From a virus (lineage: Duplodnaviria; Caudoviricetes): a DNA stretch of 64,000 nt. Position numbers and translations under genes: made by a program. Shown one piece after another: positions 57,577 to 64,000 of the stretch; within the stretch, counting starts at the first letter, position 1; each line of letters opens with the position of its first letter. Below the pieces are notes generated by a model. The model was not told the origin of the DNA, ran no database searches, and saw only the letters and a program-made list of their open reading frames with translations. The stretch spans positions 64,001 to 128,000 of the IMG/VR virus record IMGVR_UViG_3300014697_000001. One strand, written 5' to 3'.

Positions 57577-57586
57577 AGGGAATAAG

Positions 57587-57627
57587 TGGAGGGGCGAAAA
57601 CCCCTCCATTCTTTTTTTCTTTTTTGT
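57587..57627. terminator. terminator between convergent operons
   Basis: tggagggg/cccctcca stem plus long T tract. Confidence 0.8.
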
Positions 57628-58347
57628 TCAGACCCGCAGGTTTTTCGGGTGCAGTCCCGCAACCAGTTTCTGCGTTACCTTGGCACAGCATTCGGCCTTG
57701 GTGATCTTGCCATCTTTGTTGATGTCAAGGCCTTTGTTCTGCACGTAGGTAGTTGGGCGAGTCTTTTCATCCCAGAGCACGTAGTCATCGGGCTTGCCAA
57801 CACCGACCGGCCAGAGAATACGCAGGTACACATCCCCCAGGTTTTTCAGCTTGCCTTTGTACGGAGCAAAGAATTTGTGCACGTAGATCAGCTGTTGTTC
57901 GGCCGTGAGCTTAAGTAGAGCCGGCAAGGTAATACCGACATCTTTCGCCGCGGCCGCACCAAACTGGATGAGTCCGTAGTAGGGAGCGCCGGCGCCGTTT
58001 TTGATCGTCGGGGAGAAGGTCTCGCCGGTTTCGAATGCCATGCATGCCATCAGGTCATCCGGACCATTGTCGGGCATTGCCAAGTTGTCACAGATGTGCT
58101 TGACGATGCGGATGAATTCGTCACTGACCTTTTCCGACCAGGCCGTAGCCTTGCAATAGTCCAGGAAGATTGTATCAAGGTCATGTTCCTCAACCGCCCG
58201 CTTGCGCGCGGCTTCAGAAAGACGCCTGGCGTTCATGAAAGACCCATGACTCAATGGACCCCAGGCACCGTCGATGGCACCGGTATAAAGACCCATGGCT
58301 TTCATACTGCGCTGAAGTGATTTCAGTTGATTAACCGTTGCCGCCAT
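57628..58347 (-). CDS. modular endolysin: peptidoglycan-binding domain plus lysozyme-like/transglycosylase domain
   Basis: LQ..M...GLY.G.IDG.WGP; LMACMAFET, GLIQF, QQL.YV..FF, Y..ILWP, N.GLD.NKDG.IT. Confidence 0.85.
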   Translation of the reverse strand: MAATVNQLKSLQRSMKAMGLYTGAIDGAWGPLSHGSFMNARRLSEAARKRAVEEHDLDTIFLDYCKATAWSEKVSDEFIRIVKHICDNLAMPDNGPDDLMACMAFETGETFSPTIKNGAGAPYYGLIQFGAAAAKDVGITLPALLKLTAEQQLIYVHKFFAPYKGKLKNLGDVYLRILWPVGVGKPDDYVLWDEKTRPTTYVQNKGLDINKDGKITKAECCAKVTQKLVAGLHPKNLRV

Positions 58348-58993
58348 TTTGCACCTCAAACCGCTGGGTGAAGTCCAGGACGATTGTATCGATCATGGCC
58401 TTCAGGTTAGTGAACGGTGTATCGCGAACGGTGTACTCGGTATCATCCAGCGCACTGCCGGCATGATGAGCCATGTACTTGAGGCCTTGCCCCACCAACG
58501 TCAGTGGCGTAACAGGACTGTTTTCATACCGGGTGATATGGATACCGTTGCGATACTCCATACCTTTTGCAGCGATTAGCCGCGGAATCGCGATACTGGC
58601 AGTCTGATCGGCCGCTGCCTGGGCGTAGGTTTCCAGATTCAATGGCGGGGTAGTGAGCTTGACATTAAGGAAGTCGTTGATGATCCCATCTTCAAGATAC
58701 AGCATGTCCTGGGTGCTACTGATTTTATTGCGCATGTAGAACGTGGTGTGGTTTGGCCGGTCCTTGGGTTGGTACAGGGTGGCGATGCCGCCGTTATACG
58801 GAGCCGGTTCGCTTTCTCGCCAGTACTCAATCTGATACCCGATCAGGGCATAGACATATTGCGAGGCATAGTTGAATACGGTTGCTTTTCGAATGCGGCA
58901 GTTGGCATTCATGACAGGGCCCTGTGCAGTATCGAGCCGGTGAACCATGAATTCACCCCGATCAGGGCCGTGGTAAAGTTCGAGTGTAGTCAT
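58331..58993 (-). CDS. hypothetical protein in rSAM/oxygenase operon
   Basis: Overlaps both neighbours. Confidence 0.75.
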   Translation of the reverse strand: MTTLELYHGPDRGEFMVHRLDTAQGPVMNANCRIRKATVFNYASQYVYALIGYQIEYWRESEPAPYNGGIATLYQPKDRPNHTTFYMRNKISSTQDMLYLEDGIINDFLNVKLTTPPLNLETYAQAAADQTASIAIPRLIAAKGMEYRNGIHITRYENSPVTPLTLVGQGLKYMAHHAGSALDDTEYTVRDTPFTNLKAMIDTIVLDFTQRFEVQNGGNG

Positions 58994-59454
58994 TGCTTAA
59001 AGAACTCCATGTCTATGTGTCCATTGAGGTAGTTTGATACCAGAGCTGCACGCAGCTCGCCATTTATGGATGGCTTTACCAGATGAATTACATCCCCTCG
59101 GATGATAACCATTCTACCTTGCCGAGGTTTGATTTCCAAAGCTTCGTTGTCTGGATCGACCACCAACTCACCTTCTGCGTCCAGAAGATAGAGGATCGAA
59201 GTCAGGTGGTACGGGAGGTGGTCATGGGGAGTGACTCCTTCAATACCGACGTGGACGTGCCCACACACCATCCAGAGCGAGGGGGTAGCATCCGGATGAT
59301 TGGCAAAAACGATGTCGCGAAGAACCGATTTCATGTAGTCGTTTATTCGCGGATCGGTGATGTGCGAGAGTTCCTTTTCCGCATACATGGCATCAAGAAG
59401 CCACTCCGGTGGTTCAATGCCTTCAACGATGATATAATCGCCTGGTTTGATCAT
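58990..59454 (-). CDS. 2OG-Fe(II) oxygenase-like (type B')
   Basis: PHDH, LTSILYL, P..GRMVII....H.V, R. Confidence 0.8.
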   Translation of the reverse strand: MIKPGDYIIVEGIEPPEWLLDAMYAEKELSHITDPRINDYMKSVLRDIVFANHPDATPSLWMVCGHVHVGIEGVTPHDHLPYHLTSILYLLDAEGELVVDPDNEALEIKPRQGRMVIIRGDVIHLVKPSINGELRAALVSNYLNGHIDMEFFKQ

Positions 59455-59464
59455 GATACGACAC

Positions 59465-60013
59465 TCACACAAAGTAGCATTCGTTAACCAATGAGAGACG
59501 CATGTCCTCATTGACAGTTGGGACACTGTGCTGGATGTAGCTCGGGATTATCCACAGATCGCCGGCCTTGGGCGTGACGCGATAGTTATCAAAATGCTCA
59601 TCGCGTATTCTGCGTGAATAACCGCGTGATGCAGTGAATCGCGGATCGCTGACCATCAGTCCCGAGGTGTAATCAAAGGGGTAAAATATACTGGTGATGC
59701 CCGAACTGCCGTGAATGTGAGCACCCAGTTCGGTGCCTCGCTTGATCCATTTGCCAAATGTGTCGAGCACCATATCCTGAGGTTCAATGTTAAAGACCTC
59801 ACGGATGTAACGGTGAAGGGCATCGGTTATCAACCCATCGCGAAATGCGCAGATGAGTGGAAATTCCTCTGCAGTGACCACATAAGGTATCTTTGATTCG
59901 GGTGGTGTGGCGTCGTTCAACAGAAAGATTTCATTCGCCAGCCCCTCTATATCCACCTGACCGGCAAAGTTGACGCATGCCAGTTTGATTCTCCAAGGCT
60001 CAATAAAGTCCAT
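59465..60013 (-). CDS. 2OG-Fe(II) oxygenase-like (type A', TIGR02466-like)
   Basis: AHIH, ITSIFYP, DPR, PKAGDL.IIPSY..HSV, RLS. Confidence 0.85.
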   Translation of the reverse strand: MDFIEPWRIKLACVNFAGQVDIEGLANEIFLLNDATPPESKIPYVVTAEEFPLICAFRDGLITDALHRYIREVFNIEPQDMVLDTFGKWIKRGTELGAHIHGSSGITSIFYPFDYTSGLMVSDPRFTASRGYSRRIRDEHFDNYRVTPKAGDLWIIPSYIQHSVPTVNEDMRLSLVNECYFV

Positions 60014-60554
60014 TGTCGCGATTCTCCCATCGGTTGGTTCGCAAGATAGTGAATATGACGTCTTTATCGAGTCCTTCAGGCGTTGCCTCGGCCAAGGGCC
60101 TGAGTTCGTCACTGTCCGATATATCGCAGACTATACCCACACGCAGTTCCGGATGTGGCGACGGATGTGCCGAATGCACTGTACTGCCACGAATGATCAC
60201 TAATCTGCCGGCTTTTGGAAAGACTTCAACAGCCTCTCCCAATGGGTCTACAACAAGGGCGCCTTCTGCATCGGTCAGATAGAGAATTGCAGTCAACAGA
60301 TAGGGTCCGTGATCATGGACACCGACTCCATAATTCCCTTGAAGTACGTGTGCCGTTGCAGCAAACGCACCCCGATGACCGGCACCATGACTGGAAATTG
60401 CCAATGGTGCGAGTATGTCGCGTGCGTAAGGCCAGATGATCTCGTCTCTAACCTGCGACTTATCCGGATAAATCAGGCATTCATGGATTAACTTCTCGTC
60501 GAACTCAACCCCGTCGATAATGATGTATTCGCCATCGGCTATCATAGCGGTCAC
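60000..60554 (-). CDS. 2OG-Fe(II) oxygenase-like (type B)
   Basis: VHDH, LTAILYL, PKAGRLVII....HS, R. Confidence 0.8.
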   Translation of the reverse strand: MTAMIADGEYIIIDGVEFDEKLIHECLIYPDKSQVRDEIIWPYARDILAPLAISSHGAGHRGAFAATAHVLQGNYGVGVHDHGPYLLTAILYLTDAEGALVVDPLGEAVEVFPKAGRLVIIRGSTVHSAHPSPHPELRVGIVCDISDSDELRPLAEATPEGLDKDVIFTILRTNRWENRDNGLY

Positions 60555-60559
60555 CGACT

Positions 60560-61126
60560 CTAAACGTTCTTACGAAGGTAGTATTCGTGTAGCAGTGACA
60601 GTCTTACGTCCTCTTTTACATAGGACACGCTGTGCTGGATGTAGCTCGGAAAGATGTATACATCGCCTGCGCGCGGTGTGATTTTTACAGTCGAGAAGAA
60701 TTTGTCACGGATTTCCTTAGGGTATCCTCGACAGGCATTGACCCTGGGATCGAACATATTCAGGCCCGAGACGGAATCACTTGGGTACACAATCGCGCTG
60801 ATGCAGGAGCCGGGATGATAATGCGGAAACAACCCTTCGCCTTCCGGAATCCATTTGGCATTGGTCTCTACCTCATATCGTCCGGTGATGTCGTATTCGA
60901 ACACTTCATTGGAATACTCACACACCTTAGGCGTGATGATCTGGTCACGGGTATGCATGAGGATTGGGATCAGCTCAGGGTCTAGAAACTTCTGGTCGAT
61001 GTCTTCATCGGTGGCCATGTTGTTAAGCATGAAGACTTCATTATTCAGTTCGTTGACATCGATGCCAAAGTCGGTAGCCAGGTTGAAATGACCCAGTTGA
61101 ATCTTCCAAGGATGAATGATGTTCAT
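60560..61126 (-). CDS. 2OG-Fe(II) oxygenase-like (type A, TIGR02466-like)
   Basis: PHYH, ISAIVYP, DPR, PRAGDV.IFPSY..HSV, RLS. Confidence 0.85.
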   Translation of the reverse strand: MNIIHPWKIQLGHFNLATDFGIDVNELNNEVFMLNNMATDEDIDQKFLDPELIPILMHTRDQIITPKVCEYSNEVFEYDITGRYEVETNAKWIPEGEGLFPHYHPGSCISAIVYPSDSVSGLNMFDPRVNACRGYPKEIRDKFFSTVKITPRAGDVYIFPSYIQHSVSYVKEDVRLSLLHEYYLRKNV

Positions 61127-61572
61127 ACGTCACCTGCATTGTTGATTTGTTCAAGTCCTTGCTCGGTACATTCCAGGTAGAAATACCTGACCGTCTGAGG
61201 CGACCAGCCGGTCTCGAGCCAATTTGGCAGGGTGTTCACCGCTGCCAGAATTTTTTCATAGGTGTCAGGGTCTTGACTGTAAGGTACAAAGTACTGGTCA
61301 TGACCCATAAACAGGTCGGGATCGTCCAGGCTTTCTTGAATATCGAACCCATAGACTTCGTGCAACTTGGTGGCATAGATCACTGCCACGGCATAGCTCT
61401 TGGCTGGATAGATCAACGGGAATGTAGCACTGGTATAGTAATGCAGGGCATTGTTGACCAGTTCGGGATGTTCGATGATTTCCATTTTGGCAAAATCATC
61501 ACTGTGGTCTAGGACAAGTTCATGATAGAGACGTTGGTATTCTTTATAGATAGAACGATCAGTCATCACCAC
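61123..61572 (-). CDS. hypothetical protein accompanying radical SAM cluster
   Basis: IYPAKSYAVAVIYA and L.DPDLF...D.YF.PY motifs; coupled to both neighbours. Confidence 0.75.
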   Translation of the reverse strand: MVMTDRSIYKEYQRLYHELVLDHSDDFAKMEIIEHPELVNNALHYYTSATFPLIYPAKSYAVAVIYATKLHEVYGFDIQESLDDPDLFMGHDQYFVPYSQDPDTYEKILAAVNTLPNWLETGWSPQTVRYFYLECTEQGLEQINNAGDV

Positions 61573-62614
61573 GCACCGGATTCGTAGAAGGGTTGAGGTC
61601 CCAGCGGTTTTTCATATCCAACAGACATTCATCATGACCGATATGATGCATGATGAGTTGGACATCGCCACGGGCACAGTGATCCATGAAACAACAATCG
61701 CCACACGCAGGATGGTTGCTGTAGTTCAGCAAGTTATTGTAGTACATTTCCGAGCGGTAGTCTATTACCGCCTCGGCTGTCCACGGACGAGGCACAATAA
61801 ACGCATCCGAAAACAGAGGAAACTTTTCCATGAGCACCGGGGTGTAATAGAGTTCGCCTCGATGATAAACCACCTCAACACTGTCCGAAACTGTAGGGAT
61901 CAGGTATCGGTTGTACCGCGTGTCTTTGCACTCATGGATACCTCTTGTAAATGCTGCGAAATCCCGTATAAATTCCTGACGAACCAGCAGATTATCGAGA
62001 CCTCGCCTGGAGTGAGGGAAGACATACTCCACCAGCTTTTCCATGCCGATGTCCAGTTCCTGAACCATTTGGTTGTTGGTCAGTGAGAACTCCTCGACGC
62101 TGGCATTGACCATGTTTATTGTCAGGTAGACCAGCTTGAACTGGGTCTCGTGCATGTGTTCATTCAGTATCTGAATCCGGCGCTTGATCATCGCCAGGTA
62201 TTTGGGATTGCCTGCATTTTTCAAGGTGGCTGGAACCACAAGGCGAAACTTCTTCCCCGCCATTAATCGGTCAACCTTCTTGGCAAACTCCACCAAGCCA
62301 GTATCAAATAACAATGCCAGTGACACGGTCAATGAGCTGTATCGTTCGGCCAGGTCTTTAACTAATGGGCTGTCTAGAATCGACAGCCCTGACTTGGACG
62401 AGACTACATCCGTAGGGCCTAACGTCAGCTCGTGCAAGCGATAACCGGCCTCTTTCATCTGGTCTGCTAGAATGATGAGACGCTCGTGATCACCGGGGCC
62501 GACAAAATCACTGGTAGCATTTTTATCGATAGCGCAATCGGCGCAGGAATATCCACAACCCTTTAAAATCTCAAGCGTAATGTTAAACGCCAGATCACTT
62601 TGATTGGACAGCAT
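61559..62614 (-). CDS. radical SAM-like protein with C-terminal Cys cluster
   Basis: CGYSCADC (CxxxCxxC); CGDCCFMDHC...C. Confidence 0.85.
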   Translation of the reverse strand: MLSNQSDLAFNITLEILKGCGYSCADCAIDKNATSDFVGPGDHERLIILADQMKEAGYRLHELTLGPTDVVSSKSGLSILDSPLVKDLAERYSSLTVSLALLFDTGLVEFAKKVDRLMAGKKFRLVVPATLKNAGNPKYLAMIKRRIQILNEHMHETQFKLVYLTINMVNASVEEFSLTNNQMVQELDIGMEKLVEYVFPHSRRGLDNLLVRQEFIRDFAAFTRGIHECKDTRYNRYLIPTVSDSVEVVYHRGELYYTPVLMEKFPLFSDAFIVPRPWTAEAVIDYRSEMYYNNLLNYSNHPACGDCCFMDHCARGDVQLIMHHIGHDECLLDMKNRWDLNPSTNPVRGDD

Positions 62615-63620
62615 ATTGCAGCCCCACTAAGCATTCTCGTATGGAGAGCATTTCCATGATGGTGGTGATCCCCTTTTCACTACAGCTGCTGAGGTACTCG
62701 CACGTTTCACAAGCAGTACCGGCGATATGCTTAAGTGAGCTCTCCAATGCCTTGCTACGGTGTGCTAGCAGGTTATCCATTGTCCAGGGACGCTTGATCA
62801 CGAACGCCTCGTTAAGGAAGGCATAGTCGTCTTTAAGGAAGGGTACCCAGTGAAGCTTTCCATCGGTATAAAGCAGGTTGACCATGGTGCCGGTGTCTAG
62901 GCACAGGTCAGGGTTCCGACGCCGTTCATCGACCCCGGTGAGCTCACTGTAAAATGAGCTGATTCGATGTGAGATGGCTTTAACCGATTCGCTGGTGGTC
63001 AGATCCAACCGCATCGACCGACCATAGGGAATGTTGAGAATATCGTCCTTGTCTACGGGAAATTCGACATCAAACCCCTTGAGCATCCGGTCTTCGAAAT
63101 CATCGGTCACGGTGTCTCTGGTACAGTTTATGACAAAACCCGCTTCGTTGAGGTAGGCTCTTTTCAGAGTATTTTTGATAAAGGTTAACTTACTGTCGAT
63201 CATTTTCCCAAACTTACCCGTCTTAAAGAAATCAGGGGCGGCCGGGATCAAAAAACGTATTGCCTTACCGGGAAATGCATCATCGATTTCTCGACACATC
63301 TTGGCGTAATTGTCAAGGTTCTTATCGAGAAAGGCAGCATTGATGGTCACCTGTTCAAACATCTGGCCCAGTTCTTTGACGATCGGGTTTTGGAAGACTT
63401 CCAGGCTGTTGTCTGCAGACATGTAATCTGTCGGACCCATGCCAAGGTCAAACGCTACATACCCGGCACTGCGCATCTCATTGATCAGCGCCAGTAACTC
63501 GGGCAGGTCGTAGATATCGCCTCCCAGGGTACGGTCTATCATACACCCAGAACACGAGTGCGCACAGCCTTTAAAAATGTCAAGCGTGATTTCCAGACGC
63601 TGCCTATGGGGTACTTTCAT
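62595..63620 (-). CDS. radical SAM-like protein with C-terminal Cys cluster
   Basis: CAHSCSGC (CxxxCxxC); CETCEYLSSC...C. Confidence 0.85.
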   Translation of the reverse strand: MKVPHRQRLEITLDIFKGCAHSCSGCMIDRTLGGDIYDLPELLALINEMRSAGYVAFDLGMGPTDYMSADNSLEVFQNPIVKELGQMFEQVTINAAFLDKNLDNYAKMCREIDDAFPGKAIRFLIPAAPDFFKTGKFGKMIDSKLTFIKNTLKRAYLNEAGFVINCTRDTVTDDFEDRMLKGFDVEFPVDKDDILNIPYGRSMRLDLTTSESVKAISHRISSFYSELTGVDERRRNPDLCLDTGTMVNLLYTDGKLHWVPFLKDDYAFLNEAFVIKRPWTMDNLLAHRSKALESSLKHIAGTACETCEYLSSCSEKGITTIMEMLSIRECLVGLQYAVQSK

Positions 63621-64000
63621 GTGCTTCCCACCGCTTTAATAGATTATAGAATCCGTTGCACGAGTCCTCGAGGGACTTGACAGGACGTAGATGCTCAGAC
63701 AGGCATCCGCCTTTGTACTCACACGCATTGCAGAATTTATTCTTTTCAACCCGTTTACGTTCGCCTTCACACCATCGATGATAGTCGGCCATGTCCTTGA
63801 TCGGTAGGAAAAACTCTCGATCATTGAGGTCAAATTCCAATACTGCGAATGTCCCCTCTGGAGTTACGTAAAGGTGGTCGTCACTGTAGGAGTGGCCATA
63901 ACCGTCCACTGCCCGAATGATCTGTTGCTGATTCTCGATGTGAAACTTACGCTGGGGATGATGAATCAATGCCCATACCAGGTTTTCGTACTCGCTGAAT
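63604..64000 (-). CDS. C-terminal part of a third radical SAM/SPASM-like protein (partial)
   Basis: YVTPEG; CNACEYKGGC...SC; frame runs off the window. Confidence 0.7.
   Translation of the reverse strand, partial: FSEYENLVWALIHHPQRKFHIENQQQIIRAVDGYGHSYSDDHLYVTPEGTFAVLEFDLNDREFFLPIKDMADYHRWCEGERKRVEKNKFCNACEYKGGCLSEHLRPVKSLEDSCNGFYNLLKRWEAHESTP

Follow-up and report, generated by a model that had tools for sequence, protein, structure and literature searches.

The genes at positions 57628-64000 belong to an operon whose products, in the reading that we consider probable, post-translationally modify one phage protein that then enters the virus particle; in no phage has such a modification actually been seen. 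The protein in question, termed the CH-tail protein, is encoded past the end of the window, i.e. of the whole 64,000-nucleotide stretch of DNA that was analysed. The original prediction of a RiPP-like modification system gained support from a candidate substrate gene, from co-conservation and from a virion-located homologue, short of any demonstration of an actual modification. Such virion maturation is not described in the papers that were searched.

Extent and gene content of the operon

Positions 57628-64000 of the window, which derives from a 250.5-kb phage record, carry ten tightly packed genes on the minus strand: the 3′ part of the radical SAM gene rS317, the radical SAM paralogues rS341 and rS351, p149, four oxygenase genes, one gene of unknown function and one lysin-like gene. 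Neighbouring genes overlap or are separated by no more than 10 nt. All the ORFs of the original prediction were recovered in place on the minus strand. The extent proposed for the operon, 58331-64000, held for its genes and not for its boundaries, as the unit continues downstream to 57628 and starts upstream of the window, ~11 kb past the window end. The whole late operon spans ~17.5 kb, and the portion at 57628-64000 makes up its downstream half.

The unit ends at a GC-rich hairpin (57585-57610, or 1585-1610 in L003 coordinates; no strand assigned) with a 10-bp stem containing 6 GC pairs and a subsequent plus-strand T-run, which separates it from a convergent plus-strand gene. The last co-directional gene (57628..58359, minus strand) encodes a 243 amino acid lysin or baseplate-hub-like protein that matched phrog_4928 (9e-66) and phrog_196, ‘baseplate hub’ (5e-39), and its DT01 homologue is annotated as ‘putative transglycosylase’. 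This gene adjoins the cluster in only two of the 44 independent IMG/VR loci with enough flanking DNA that formed the co-conservation set. The accessory gene at 58331..58993 (minus strand) encodes a 220 amino acid protein of unknown function, for which Pfam, PHROG and NCBIfam gave no family and the atlas no usable lead; homologues were limited to DT01 and a single IMG/VR locus.

Radical SAM enzymes

rS317 is a core member of the system. Its 3′ part occupies 63604..64000 (minus strand), and the full gene (63604-64557, L003:7604-8557) encodes 317 amino acids. The partial third radical SAM gene that had been recognized by its shared Cys tail is the 3′ end of this gene, and the same four-Cys tail is indeed present. 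The rS317 product scored 35.7 bits against PF04055, over the cut-off, matched phrog_1802 (2.6e-33), and contains CX3CX2C at residue 20, GGE at residue 66 and a C-terminal CX2CX5C...C motif. Its closest solved relative by sequence, identified by profile search, was the peptide epimerase YydG/EpeE (E 7e-9).

The divergent paralogues rS341 (62595..63620, minus strand, 341 amino acids) and rS351 (61559..62614, minus strand, 351 amino acids) are 26% identical (E 1e-38). Both carry GPTD in the place of the usual GGE(P) and a C-terminal CX2CX5C...C set; rS341 has CAHSCSGC at residue 19, GPTD at residue 62 and C304/307/313/330, and rS351 has CGYSCADC at residue 20. Residues C20, C24, C27, G66, P67, D69, C304, C307, C313 and C330 were invariant in 25 homologues of this family. 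Both proteins stayed under every sequence-family threshold, with 13.6 bits against a cut-off of 29.5 in Pfam, or no match in the case of rS351, which is 46% identical to a DT01 protein annotated as ‘radical SAM protein’. The AlphaFold2 model of rS351 (pLDDT 89.9) superposed on anSMEcpe over nearly its full length (Z 15.3, rmsd 4.7, 303 aligned), and ChlB, SuiB, CteB and SkfB were the next structural matches. The CxxxCxxC motifs and GPTD described for these two proteins in the original prediction were confirmed. The family occurs in 15 of the 44 loci, so that rS341 and rS351 are a lineage-specific add-on outside the core; with GPTD replacing GGE, their enzymatic activity is no more than putative.

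rS355, another radical SAM enzyme of the system, had profile matches to TigE, anSME, CteB and ChlB and reached the SPASM domain model TIGR04085 (28.2 bits, cut-off 27). The radical SAM enzymes of the cluster are of the peptide-maturase type; no SAM cleavage has been shown. The DT01 genome paper suggested, without data, a role in nucleic-acid or nucleotide modification, DNA repair or metabolism, and phage radical SAM enzymes of nucleoside pathways (QueE, viperin-like) do exist, with weak matches seen here. It is nevertheless very improbable that the cluster works in modifying nucleic acids or nucleotides, in DNA repair or in boosting host metabolism, as peptide maturases gave the best matches in both structure and profile comparisons, the cluster has no conserved nucleotide-metabolism gene, and its linkage to tail modules and the CH-tail gene is strict.

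p149 and the oxygenases

The core member p149 (61123..61572, minus strand, 149 amino acids), containing YPAKSYAVA, matched phrog_20737 (3e-40), and its YP.KSY motif, K10, Q13 and D25 were invariant in 28 homologues. Natural fusions of rS317 and p149 in one chain of 428-460 amino acids were found in ten protein clusters. p149 is likely an accessory subunit of rS317, a role assigned from sequence alone.

The four oxygenase genes, all on the minus strand, alternate between PF13759 and PF13640-like types as a duplicated pair. oxyB (60560..61126, 188 amino acids), of a core type, encodes a PF13759-type Fe(II)/2OG oxygenase (1.1e-11, 45.4 bits) with conserved H102-x-H104...H165 and R175. The accessory oxyA (60000..60554, 184 amino acids) encodes a PF13640-like oxygenase (20.1 bits) with conserved H-D-H...H127 and R138, a type present in 8 of the 44 loci. 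The second PF13759 oxygenase (59465..60013, with a likely ATG start at 60013 and the ORF open to 60112; 29.2 bits) is 42% identical to oxyB (E 3e-46) and keeps the triad, and the second PF13640-like oxygenase (58990..59454, with a likely ATG start at 59454 and the ORF open to 59526; 24.5 bits) is 42% identical to oxyA (E 2e-32). Both PF13759 proteins were above the Pfam cut-off, and both PF13640-like proteins were below theirs of 27. H-x-H/D...H plus a conserved Arg is retained in all four.

The CH-tail protein and its co-conserved genes

A Cys/His-rich substrate gene had been predicted upstream of position 64000, and one is present 4,987 nt past the window end (L003:12987-13691, minus strand). 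Its 234 amino acid product consists of a folded domain of ~165 amino acids, 14 Cys-His-x-Ser/Asn units of the form CH(S/T/A)(S/N), and RGRR. The family (~100 protein clusters) usually has ~180 amino acids and ends in (CHxS)3-RGRR; the number of units ranges from 3 to 15, three being usual. C166, H167, C170, H171 and C174 are invariant, against a mean column identity of 26% elsewhere. A plain metal-binding motif is an alternative role for the tail and was counted against the modification reading. The conserved N-terminal domain was confidently folded in the model (tail pLDDT ~53) and resembled no solved structure (best Z 4.6), which leaves gene context and a single proteome as the only grounds for a structural role.

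That the CH-tail protein, with its folded N-terminal domain and Cys-His-x-Ser tail ending in RGRR, is the substrate of the operon's enzymes is an inference. In the proposed mechanism, the radical SAM enzymes would take hydrogen atoms from tail residues, resulting in thioether-type cross-links, epimerisation or Cys/Ser oxidation, with p149 acting as an rS317 subunit, and the iron oxygenases would hydroxylate His, Ser, Asn or Arg side chains. Every one of these chemical steps is inferred; what was observed is the set of genes, their motifs and folds, their co-conservation, the fusion of two of them and the virion location of a homologue.

Around the CH-tail gene the gene order is fixed, and the same core genes are kept in 37-43 of the 44 loci (unk249, rS332 and rS317 in 43; rS355, rS378 and cupin in 41; p149 and oxyB in 37). 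A lack of co-conservation had been named beforehand as a refuting result, and these counts did not refute the system. The cultured phages Atu_ph07, DT01 and RSL2, together with relatives of RSL2, carry the system as well, and all encode a protein whose (CHxS)3 tail terminates in RGRR or RSRR. The earlier remark that similar clusters are annotated in other phages without a demonstrated product was correct. Bacteria and archaea almost entirely lack the system, with only 3 loci found among 185,579 species genomes. Other lineages carry an extra B12-binding radical SAM enzyme. unk249, unk354 and p149 are conserved, yet have no recognisable function.

The radical SAM/SPASM enzymes rS355 and rS378 and two unknown proteins are present whenever the CH repeats are present. 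A second group, comprising a cupin/JmjC-like oxygenase, the radical SAM enzymes rS332 and rS317, p149 and a PF13759 oxygenase, was seen only with the RGRR ending, and all four loci with non-RGRR tails lack the cupin, rS332, rS317, p149 and oxyB. As three of these four loci share a single subfamily, leaving aside the placement of the fourth, a single evolutionary event could be enough to account for the link. The window contains members of this second group (the rS317 3′ end, p149 and the two PF13759 oxygenases) and lineage-specific extras (the rS341/rS351 pair, the two PF13640-like oxygenases and one unknown protein).

SPASM enzymes also make the peptide-derived cofactors PQQ and mycofactocin. 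The CH-tail protein could be a scaffold or precursor whose Cys-His units are modified and cut off as a peptide, cofactor or metal chelator for the host or competitors, rather than part of the virion; the identical repeated core units, in 3 to 15 copies, recall multi-core precursors, the tail is predicted at low confidence, and weak NCBIfam similarity to PQQ/mycofactocin-type maturases was seen. We regard this as unlikely, since the cluster contains no recognisable protease, exporter or immunity gene, the conserved N-terminal domain is far larger than usual leaders, tail-fibre modules surround the cluster in each lineage looked at, and a homologue was found in virions, as follows.

Association with the virion

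In all the lineages that were looked at, genes of tail-fibre and baseplate type flank the cluster. The CH-tail homologue of Agrobacterium phage Atu_ph07 is gp170, and the masses of gp170, gp176 and gp177 equal those in the published table exactly. For gp170, 8 peptides (35% coverage) were detected in purified virions, and gp171, gp168, gp165 and gp164 of the radical SAM cluster are missing from the virion list (PMC6102473 Table S5). The 31.9 kDa gp170 peaks in gel fragment 1, the top slice, and other ~30-kDa proteins in fragments 7-8 (PMC6102473). As the loading buffer was described without a reducing agent (PMC6102473), the high-mass gp170 could be a disulfide-linked or SDS-resistant oligomer, not an enzymatically cross-linked one. 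Three targets had been offered originally, a peptide, a virion fibre or a small molecule, and a virion protein fits best with the tail-fibre neighbourhood and with gp170 in virions.

Alternatively, the (CHxS)n tail might belong to a fibre or assembly protein and stay unmodified, serving as a metal-binding or redox motif, with the enzymes acting on neighbouring tail-fibre proteins or a host molecule. The tip of the T4 long tail fibre, gp37, has His-x-His iron sites, metal sites from repeated His motifs, and offers a parallel; Cys/His every four residues would line one helix face in the low-confidence model, and if the Atu_ph07 gel was non-reducing, high-mass gp170 fits free thiols forming disulfides. 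We nonetheless doubt this explanation, because each lineage has entirely different flanking fibre genes but a constant CH-tail gene, always directly after rS355, because enzyme content varies with the tail ending, and because Cys-rich C-terminal peptides are established as typical substrates of SPASM enzymes.

Comparison with known systems

A system that modifies the CH-tail protein for the virion is akin in kind to HXS and to RiPP maturases, yet belongs to no named family. rS351 resembles anSME, CteB, SkfB, SuiB and ChlB in structure (Z 15.3 to 12.6 over ~255-304 residues). anSME and the sactipeptide/ranthipeptide maturases target a Cys or Ser within a short peptide motif and carry auxiliary-cluster domains at their C-termini, but sequence identity is 9-14%, they have GGE where rS351 and rS341 have GPTD, and the substrate motif is C/S-x-P/A-x-R or SCIFF-type rather than CHxS. 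A full SPASM domain has seven Cys, of which rS351, rS341 and rS317 retain only four, C-terminal ones.

In proteusin pathways (polytheonamide-type), multiple radical SAM enzymes and one Fe(II)/2OG hydroxylase work on a C-terminal core that follows a large N-terminal domain. The CH-tail system is comparable in its large N-terminal domain, C-terminal tail, several radical SAM enzymes and oxygenases, and in the B12-binding enzyme added in other lineages. However, it has no recognisable nitrile-hydratase-like leader, dehydratase, protease or N-methyltransferase, the product appears to remain on a virion protein, and the host is a phage. In the QhpD/QhpC pair, a radical SAM/SPASM enzyme introduces Cys thioether cross-links into a subunit, the quinohemoprotein amine dehydrogenase gamma-subunit, that stays in its complex; the NCBIfam similarity was weak (<=21 bits, far under the cut-off of 453), and the modifying enzyme is a single one serving a bacterial periplasmic dehydrogenase.

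HXS (HxsA/B/C/D) is bacterial and acts in anti-phage defence (PMC13128918), whereas the CH-tail system is phage-borne and virion-associated, and employs oxygenases as well as four to seven radical SAM enzymes, of which HXS has two. The HxsA repeats are without Cys, and HxsA has a peptidoglycan-binding domain (PMC13128918). The CH-tail protein matched no NCBIfam model, HxsA included, and the HxsB/HxsC models gave matches of only ~26-28 bits against cut-offs of 268-370. The likeness lies in a folded protein with short His-x-Ser repeats that is matured by adjacently encoded radical SAM enzymes, and in a radical SAM enzyme with a small partner, HxsC-HxsD (PMC13128918), as rS317 and p149 may pair likewise. 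Every Cys-His-x-Ser unit of the CH tail includes H-x-S, and HXS maturation, as proposed for the CH-tail system, ends with the modified protein as the functional product (PMC13128918).

Organization of the operon within and beyond the window

The IMG/VR record that holds the window is 250,515 bp long, with an estimated completeness of 94%, and the label of jumbo phage in the original prediction was therefore correct. Ten ORFs are arranged head to tail on the minus strand at 57628-64000, with junctions that overlap by 4-20 nt or leave a gap of at most 10 nt, confirming the predicted gene set as a tightly packed unit. First among them, in the order of transcription, is the 3′ part of the radical SAM gene rS317 (63604-64000; radical SAM genes are named by the amino acid length of their products), whose full 317 aa gene extends to window-equivalent position 64557. 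This is followed by two full-length radical SAM-like genes, rS341 (62595-63620) and rS351 (61559-62614), by p149, encoding a 149 aa protein with the string YPAKSYAVA (61123-61572), by a PF13759 oxygenase (60560-61126) and a PF13640-like oxygenase (60000-60554), by second copies of each (59465-60013 and 58990-59454, respectively), by a gene for a 220 aa protein of unknown function (58331-58993), and by a gene for a 243 aa lysin- or baseplate-hub-like protein (57628-58359). Between the unit and a convergent gene lies a GC-rich hairpin (57585-57610). The 243 aa product matches baseplate-hub and unknown PHROGs over their C-terminal parts; as its gene lies beside the cluster in just two of the 44 other loci compared (see below), it probably neighbours the system without belonging to it. 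An atlas feature search with the 220 aa protein gave no usable lead.

Further radical SAM genes and a Cys/His-rich substrate gene had been expected upstream, beyond position 64000, and both were found in bases 120001-140000 of the same record (L003, to whose coordinates 56000 is added to obtain window coordinates). Three radical SAM genes (rS378, rS332 and rS355) lie there on the same strand, together with a 67 aa ORF, two conserved genes of unknown function (unk354 and unk249, the latter phrog_20767) and a gene for a cupin/JmjC-like protein. Between rS355 and unk249, a 234 aa protein with 14 Cys-His units, hereafter the CH-tail protein, is encoded on the minus strand at L003:12987-13691, 4,987 nt past the window end. 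Also upstream on this strand are two tail-fibre-repeat proteins, matching phrog_2163 ('virion structural protein', 5e-128) and many tail-fibre PHROGs. The 67 aa ORF (L003:9757-9960, window-equivalent 65757-65960, minus strand) fills the sole sizeable gap in the operon, which separates rS332 from rS378. Counterparts exist in phage DT01 (a 59 aa CDS) and in two IMG/VR loci, and the ORF showed neither a Cys-rich motif nor a known family. With this region as query, megablast found nothing among 50,697 phage records, so that searches at the protein level were needed.

The CH-tail protein and its family

In the last 70 residues of the CH-tail protein, the unit Cys-His-(Ser/Thr/Ala)-(Ser/Asn) occurs 14 times, in three cases with a Val-Pro-Val spacer after it; the C-terminus is RGRR. 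A search of 5.8 billion proteins recovered 99 CH-tail clusters, mostly of 172-205 aa, nearly all of which terminate with C-H-S-S-C-H-S-S-C-H-x-S-R-G-R-R; one subfamily terminates with CHGSI instead. Four relatives of this phage carry 11-15 units. Tandem DNA repeats with periods of 45 and 78 nt encode the 14-unit tail, and since the repeats are 92-96% identical, the expansion from the usual three units appears to be recent. In an alignment of 45 sequences, the Cys and His of the repeat were invariant against a mean column identity of 26%.

In the structure model of the CH-tail protein, the N-terminal ~165 residues were predicted with a pLDDT of ~90 and the tail with ~53. Comparison of the model with solved folds gave no match (best Z, 4.6), and matches in BFVD were limited to its own relatives, including the DT01 and Atu_ph07 proteins. 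Longer family members (P0114-P0118, 453-461 aa) carry an N-terminal Gly_rich_2 domain (PF21722), followed by the CH-tail domain ending with CHxSCHSSCHxSRGRR. In P0119 (650 aa, from a JGI metagenome), a Hint/intein-like domain directly follows the CH repeats (CHYSCHFA-CFIRGTQI) and replaces RGRR; this protein terminates with AHNRE, without a nucleophile after HN. The arrangement in P0119 suggests self-cleavage or activation of the C-terminus of the tail, a function that is only putative.

Conservation of the gene cluster

A pattern scan of IMG/VR yielded 59 loci, in which ORFs were called and searched with the operon proteins and then with HMMs built from the first matches. Counting was restricted to RGRR-type loci whose flanks reached at least 2.5 kb upstream and at least 8 kb downstream, of which there were 44. 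Genes unk249, rS332 and rS317 were each present in 43 of these, the cupin gene, rS355 and rS378 each in 41, and unk354, p149 and the PF13759 oxygenase (oxyB) each in 37, while rS341/351 (15/44), the PF13640-like oxygenase (oxyA, 8/44) and the 220 aa unknown (1/44) were less frequent. The gene order was fixed: cupin, rS355, CH-tail, unk249, unk354, rS332, rS378, (oxyB), rS317, p149, (oxyB). From these counts and this order, rS317, p149 and the PF13759 oxygenase are the part of the core that falls in the window, and rS341, rS351, the PF13640-like oxygenases and the 220 aa unknown are additions. In other lineages, a B12-binding radical SAM enzyme takes the place of the rS341/351 additions. The contigs that bear rS341/351 are mainly 107-277 kb long. 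The presence of the extra enzymes could not be related to repeat number; DT01 has three repeats and both add-on radical SAM genes.

The CH-tail gene directly follows rS355 in nearly all loci. A ribosomal precursor with a core motif thus stands beside tailoring enzymes, as required of a RiPP cluster, and this co-conservation of precursor and enzymes supports the RiPP-like modification system of the original prediction, as far as sequence analysis allows.

Four loci, three in the CHGSI subfamily and a fourth outside it, are without the RGRR terminus; they lack the cupin gene, rS332, rS317, p149 and oxyB, and retain rS355, unk249, unk354 and rS378. This suggests that one group of enzymes may be tied to the CH repeats and a second to the basic C-terminus; as three of the four loci belong to one subfamily, a single evolutionary event may be enough to explain the pattern. 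The non-RGRR loci L007, L070, L071, L072 (CHGSI) and L060 encode a B12-binding radical SAM enzyme of ~645 aa. A different layout was seen in three IMG/VR contigs of 17-54 kb (L062, L063 and L068), in which five rS341/351-like paralogues follow a short CH-tail protein (133-138 aa) and rS317, p149 and rS332 are encoded on the other strand; neither a cupin gene nor rS355 nor an oxygenase was detected in these three.

A scan of bacteria and archaea, with a single genome for each of 185,579 species, gave three loci, and in at least one case the contig looks like stray phage DNA. In an assembly of Dysosmobacter segnis, a contig of 4.3 kb (L073, NZ_JACOQI010000054.1) encodes a multi-repeat CH tail 62% identical to that of this phage, along with unk354, rS332 and rS378; a stray phage contig seems likelier here than a bacterial copy. 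In a 208-kb contig binned as Gemella (L074), a CH-tail gene lies among radical SAM genes.

Core radical SAM proteins, p149 and the oxygenases

The products of rS355, rS332 and rS378 each contain seven to eight C-terminal Cys residues, and that of rS355 reaches the SPASM model TIGR04085 (28.2 bits, cut-off 27). A search for longer relatives of p149 recovered ten protein clusters (428-460 aa) that are natural fusions of rS317 and p149, in which the rS317 part is 47% identical over 305 residues and the p149 part 40% identical over 129, with a joint of about four residues; one of these clusters has 12 member sequences on 4 contigs. On the basis of this gene fusion, p149 is assigned as the likely partner of rS317. 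Structure-based prediction of an rS317-p149 complex scored 0.00, which gives no verdict and was counted neither way. An atlas feature search with p149 provided no usable lead and no NCBIfam family was assigned. Matches of its profile to designed PPR repeats among PDB sequences were dropped, as no stretch passes alone. The unk249 and CH-tail family profiles likewise gave nothing usable against PDB sequences.

The two PF13759 oxygenases exceed the gathering score of 27 (45.4 and 29.2 bits), and the two PF13640-like oxygenases fall below theirs, also 27 (20.1 and 24.5 bits). All four (58990-61126) keep an H-x-H…H metal site and a conserved Arg, that is, a facial triad and a basic residue for the 2OG carboxylate. 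The second metal ligand is His in all four rather than Asp/Glu; H-x-D occurs in some relatives from other phages. The copies are 42% identical within each type, indicating tandem duplication of a two-gene unit.

The divergent radical SAM proteins rS341 and rS351

The sequence features noticed originally in rS341 and rS351 were all invariant across 25 homologues: the CX3CX2C motif for the SAM-binding [4Fe-4S] cluster near the N-terminus (C19/C23/C26 in rS341, C20/C24/C27 in rS351), GPTD at the position of GGE (G66, P67 and D69), and the C-terminal C304-x2-C307-x5-C313…C330. The PF04055 gathering score of 29.5 bits was not reached (13.6 bits for rS341, no match for rS351), and the family profile found no significant radical SAM enzyme among PDB sequences, the best match being MiaB (E 0.26). 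In hhalign, the family aligned with the rS355 family at 1% probability and with the rS317 family at 21%, the latter only over the cluster-binding loop, so that radical SAM kinship rests on the motifs and the predicted fold. The AlphaFold2 model of rS351 (pLDDT 89.9, pTM 0.89) contains the partial TIM-barrel radical SAM fold, and matched SkfB, EpeE, CteB, anSME and viperin with a Foldseek probability of 1.00. In VIA-align, it superposed on anSMEcpe over nearly its full length (Z 15.3, rmsd 4.7, 303 aligned), and on further peptide-modifying radical SAM enzymes with Z of 13.8 (ChlB), 12.9 (SuiB), 12.6 (CteB) and 12.6 (SkfB). With these motifs and this fold, rS341 and rS351 were accepted as divergent radical SAM enzymes; SAM cleavage is inferred, without biochemistry. 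The full SPASM criterion comprises seven Cys (CX9-15GX4C, CX2CX5CX3C and C) and two auxiliary clusters. The seven-Cys motif is absent from rS351, rS341 and rS317, whose four C-terminal Cys (CX2CX5C…C) leave room for one auxiliary cluster at most.

The CH-tail protein in cultured phages and virions

The cluster lies within the tail module in every lineage examined. In this phage and its relatives, it comes after tail-fibre-repeat proteins; in other lineages, giant DUF4815 proteins and a faint Gp8-like baseplate match precede it, and Peptidase_S74 fibre proteins come after it. A nucleic-acid or metabolic role is very improbable in our judgement beside this placement.

In tblastn against the phage collection, two distant CH-tail proteins found no match. 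With rS317, a more conserved query, 15 records were obtained, and its homologues place the system in cultured phages including Atu_ph07, Sinorhizobium phage Phosso, DT01, RSL2, RSF1 and FLC6/8. RSL2 ORF068 terminates with CHSSCHTSCHGSRGRR, DT01 PA10_00065 with CHTSCHTSCHSARGRR, and Atu_ph07 gp170 with CHSSCHASCHNSRSRR. The Ralstonia phages RP12 and RP31, which have radical SAM genes and a virion proteome, were set aside, as their cluster differs in gene sizes and content (a 537 aa radical SAM protein, MgoB).

Gp170 of Atu_ph07 (31.89 kDa) is listed among the proteins of purified virions, with 8 unique peptides and 35% coverage, and was detected in gel fragments 1-9 with a peak in fragment 1 (PMC6102473, Table S5). 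Atu_ph07 proteins of ~30 kDa otherwise peak in fragments 7-8, and those of 117-137 kDa in fragments 1-2 (PMC6102473). The neighbouring radical SAM proteins gp171, gp168, gp165 and gp164, as well as gp169, are absent from the virion list (PMC6102473, Table S5). The computed masses of gp170, gp176 and gp177 equal the table values (PMC6102473), and the gene numbering therefore matches. The tail protein of Atu_ph07 is in the particle, in a high-mass form stable to heat and SDS, and the enzymes are not. Disulfides are not excluded and could account for the high mass of gp170, because the loading buffer as described contains no reducing agent. A tail that binds metal unmodified, with the enzymes acting elsewhere, is a reading that we regard as unlikely alongside the fixed position of the CH-tail gene among the enzyme genes.

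A proposed maturation pathway and its relation to known systems

We consider it probable, though far from settled, that the cluster encodes enzymes dedicated to the maturation of a virion protein, with the tail as substrate; the chemistry is inferred. The radical SAM enzymes would abstract hydrogen atoms from the tail, leading to cross-links, epimerisation or Cys/Ser oxidation; their nearest solved relatives do exactly such chemistry on peptides. The cupin and 2OG-type oxygenases would hydroxylate side chains. More tentatively, new covalent chemistry on (CHxS)n-RGRR, such as Cys-to-His or Cys-to-backbone cross-links with hydroxylations, might form a rivet or metal-bearing tip of the tail apparatus needed for infection; this remains a possibility that we hold with considerable doubt. 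To our knowledge, little is known of enzymatic post-translational chemistry in phage particles beyond proteolysis and self-catalysed cross-links. If the proposed maturation is true, it would be the first that is radical-SAM-dependent in a virus particle, with a wide distribution that takes in soil jumbo phages at one end and marine myoviruses at the other. One short motif on a virion protein would then have a conserved pathway of its own, made up of four core radical SAM enzymes, two iron oxygenase types and three proteins without known function. The motif is far better conserved than the rest of the protein and, in one lineage, seems to have expanded recently from 3 to 11-15 copies. Tractable phages already in culture, infecting Pseudomonas, Ralstonia, Burkholderia, Agrobacterium and Sinorhizobium, carry the pathway, which might reveal new reactions of radical SAM enzymes and would assign a role to genes that genome papers now list as 'radical SAM, unknown'.

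The genome papers of DT01, FLC6 and S13 list the genes only, and a literature search (the motif string; radical SAM, SPASM and tail fibre in phages) did not find the system described. Its working resembles that of RiPP and proteusin pathways, but the product seems to stay on the folded protein. Release of a peptide-derived product appears improbable; no protease or transporter/exporter family was found among the cluster proteins, of which three conserved ones are without known function. Maturation on the virion protein remains the preferred reading, and for it the closest described system is HXS, a bacterial defence system that shares the logic of radical SAM maturation of a repeat protein. 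In HXS, HxsA, a protein with His-x-Ser repeats, is matured by the radical SAM proteins HxsB and HxsC together with the small HxsD, gaining +8 Da on an SHRSS motif (PMC13128918). The cluster proteins stayed below the cut-offs of the HXS models in NCBIfam (27.7 bits against 267.9 for HxsC, 25.6 against 370 for HxsB), and the CH-tail proteins matched no NCBIfam model, including HxsA. Each CHxS unit here, with a period of four, contains H-x-S, whereas HxsA, as described, has nothing that corresponds to the invariant Cys of the units; the two systems also differ in their enzymes and in biological side. Radical SAM maturation of a repeat-bearing protein is already known, while the setting proposed here, a phage particle, has not been described before. 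By analogy, the maturation of an H-x-S repeat protein in HXS as well hints that both sides of the phage-host conflict may use related chemistry.
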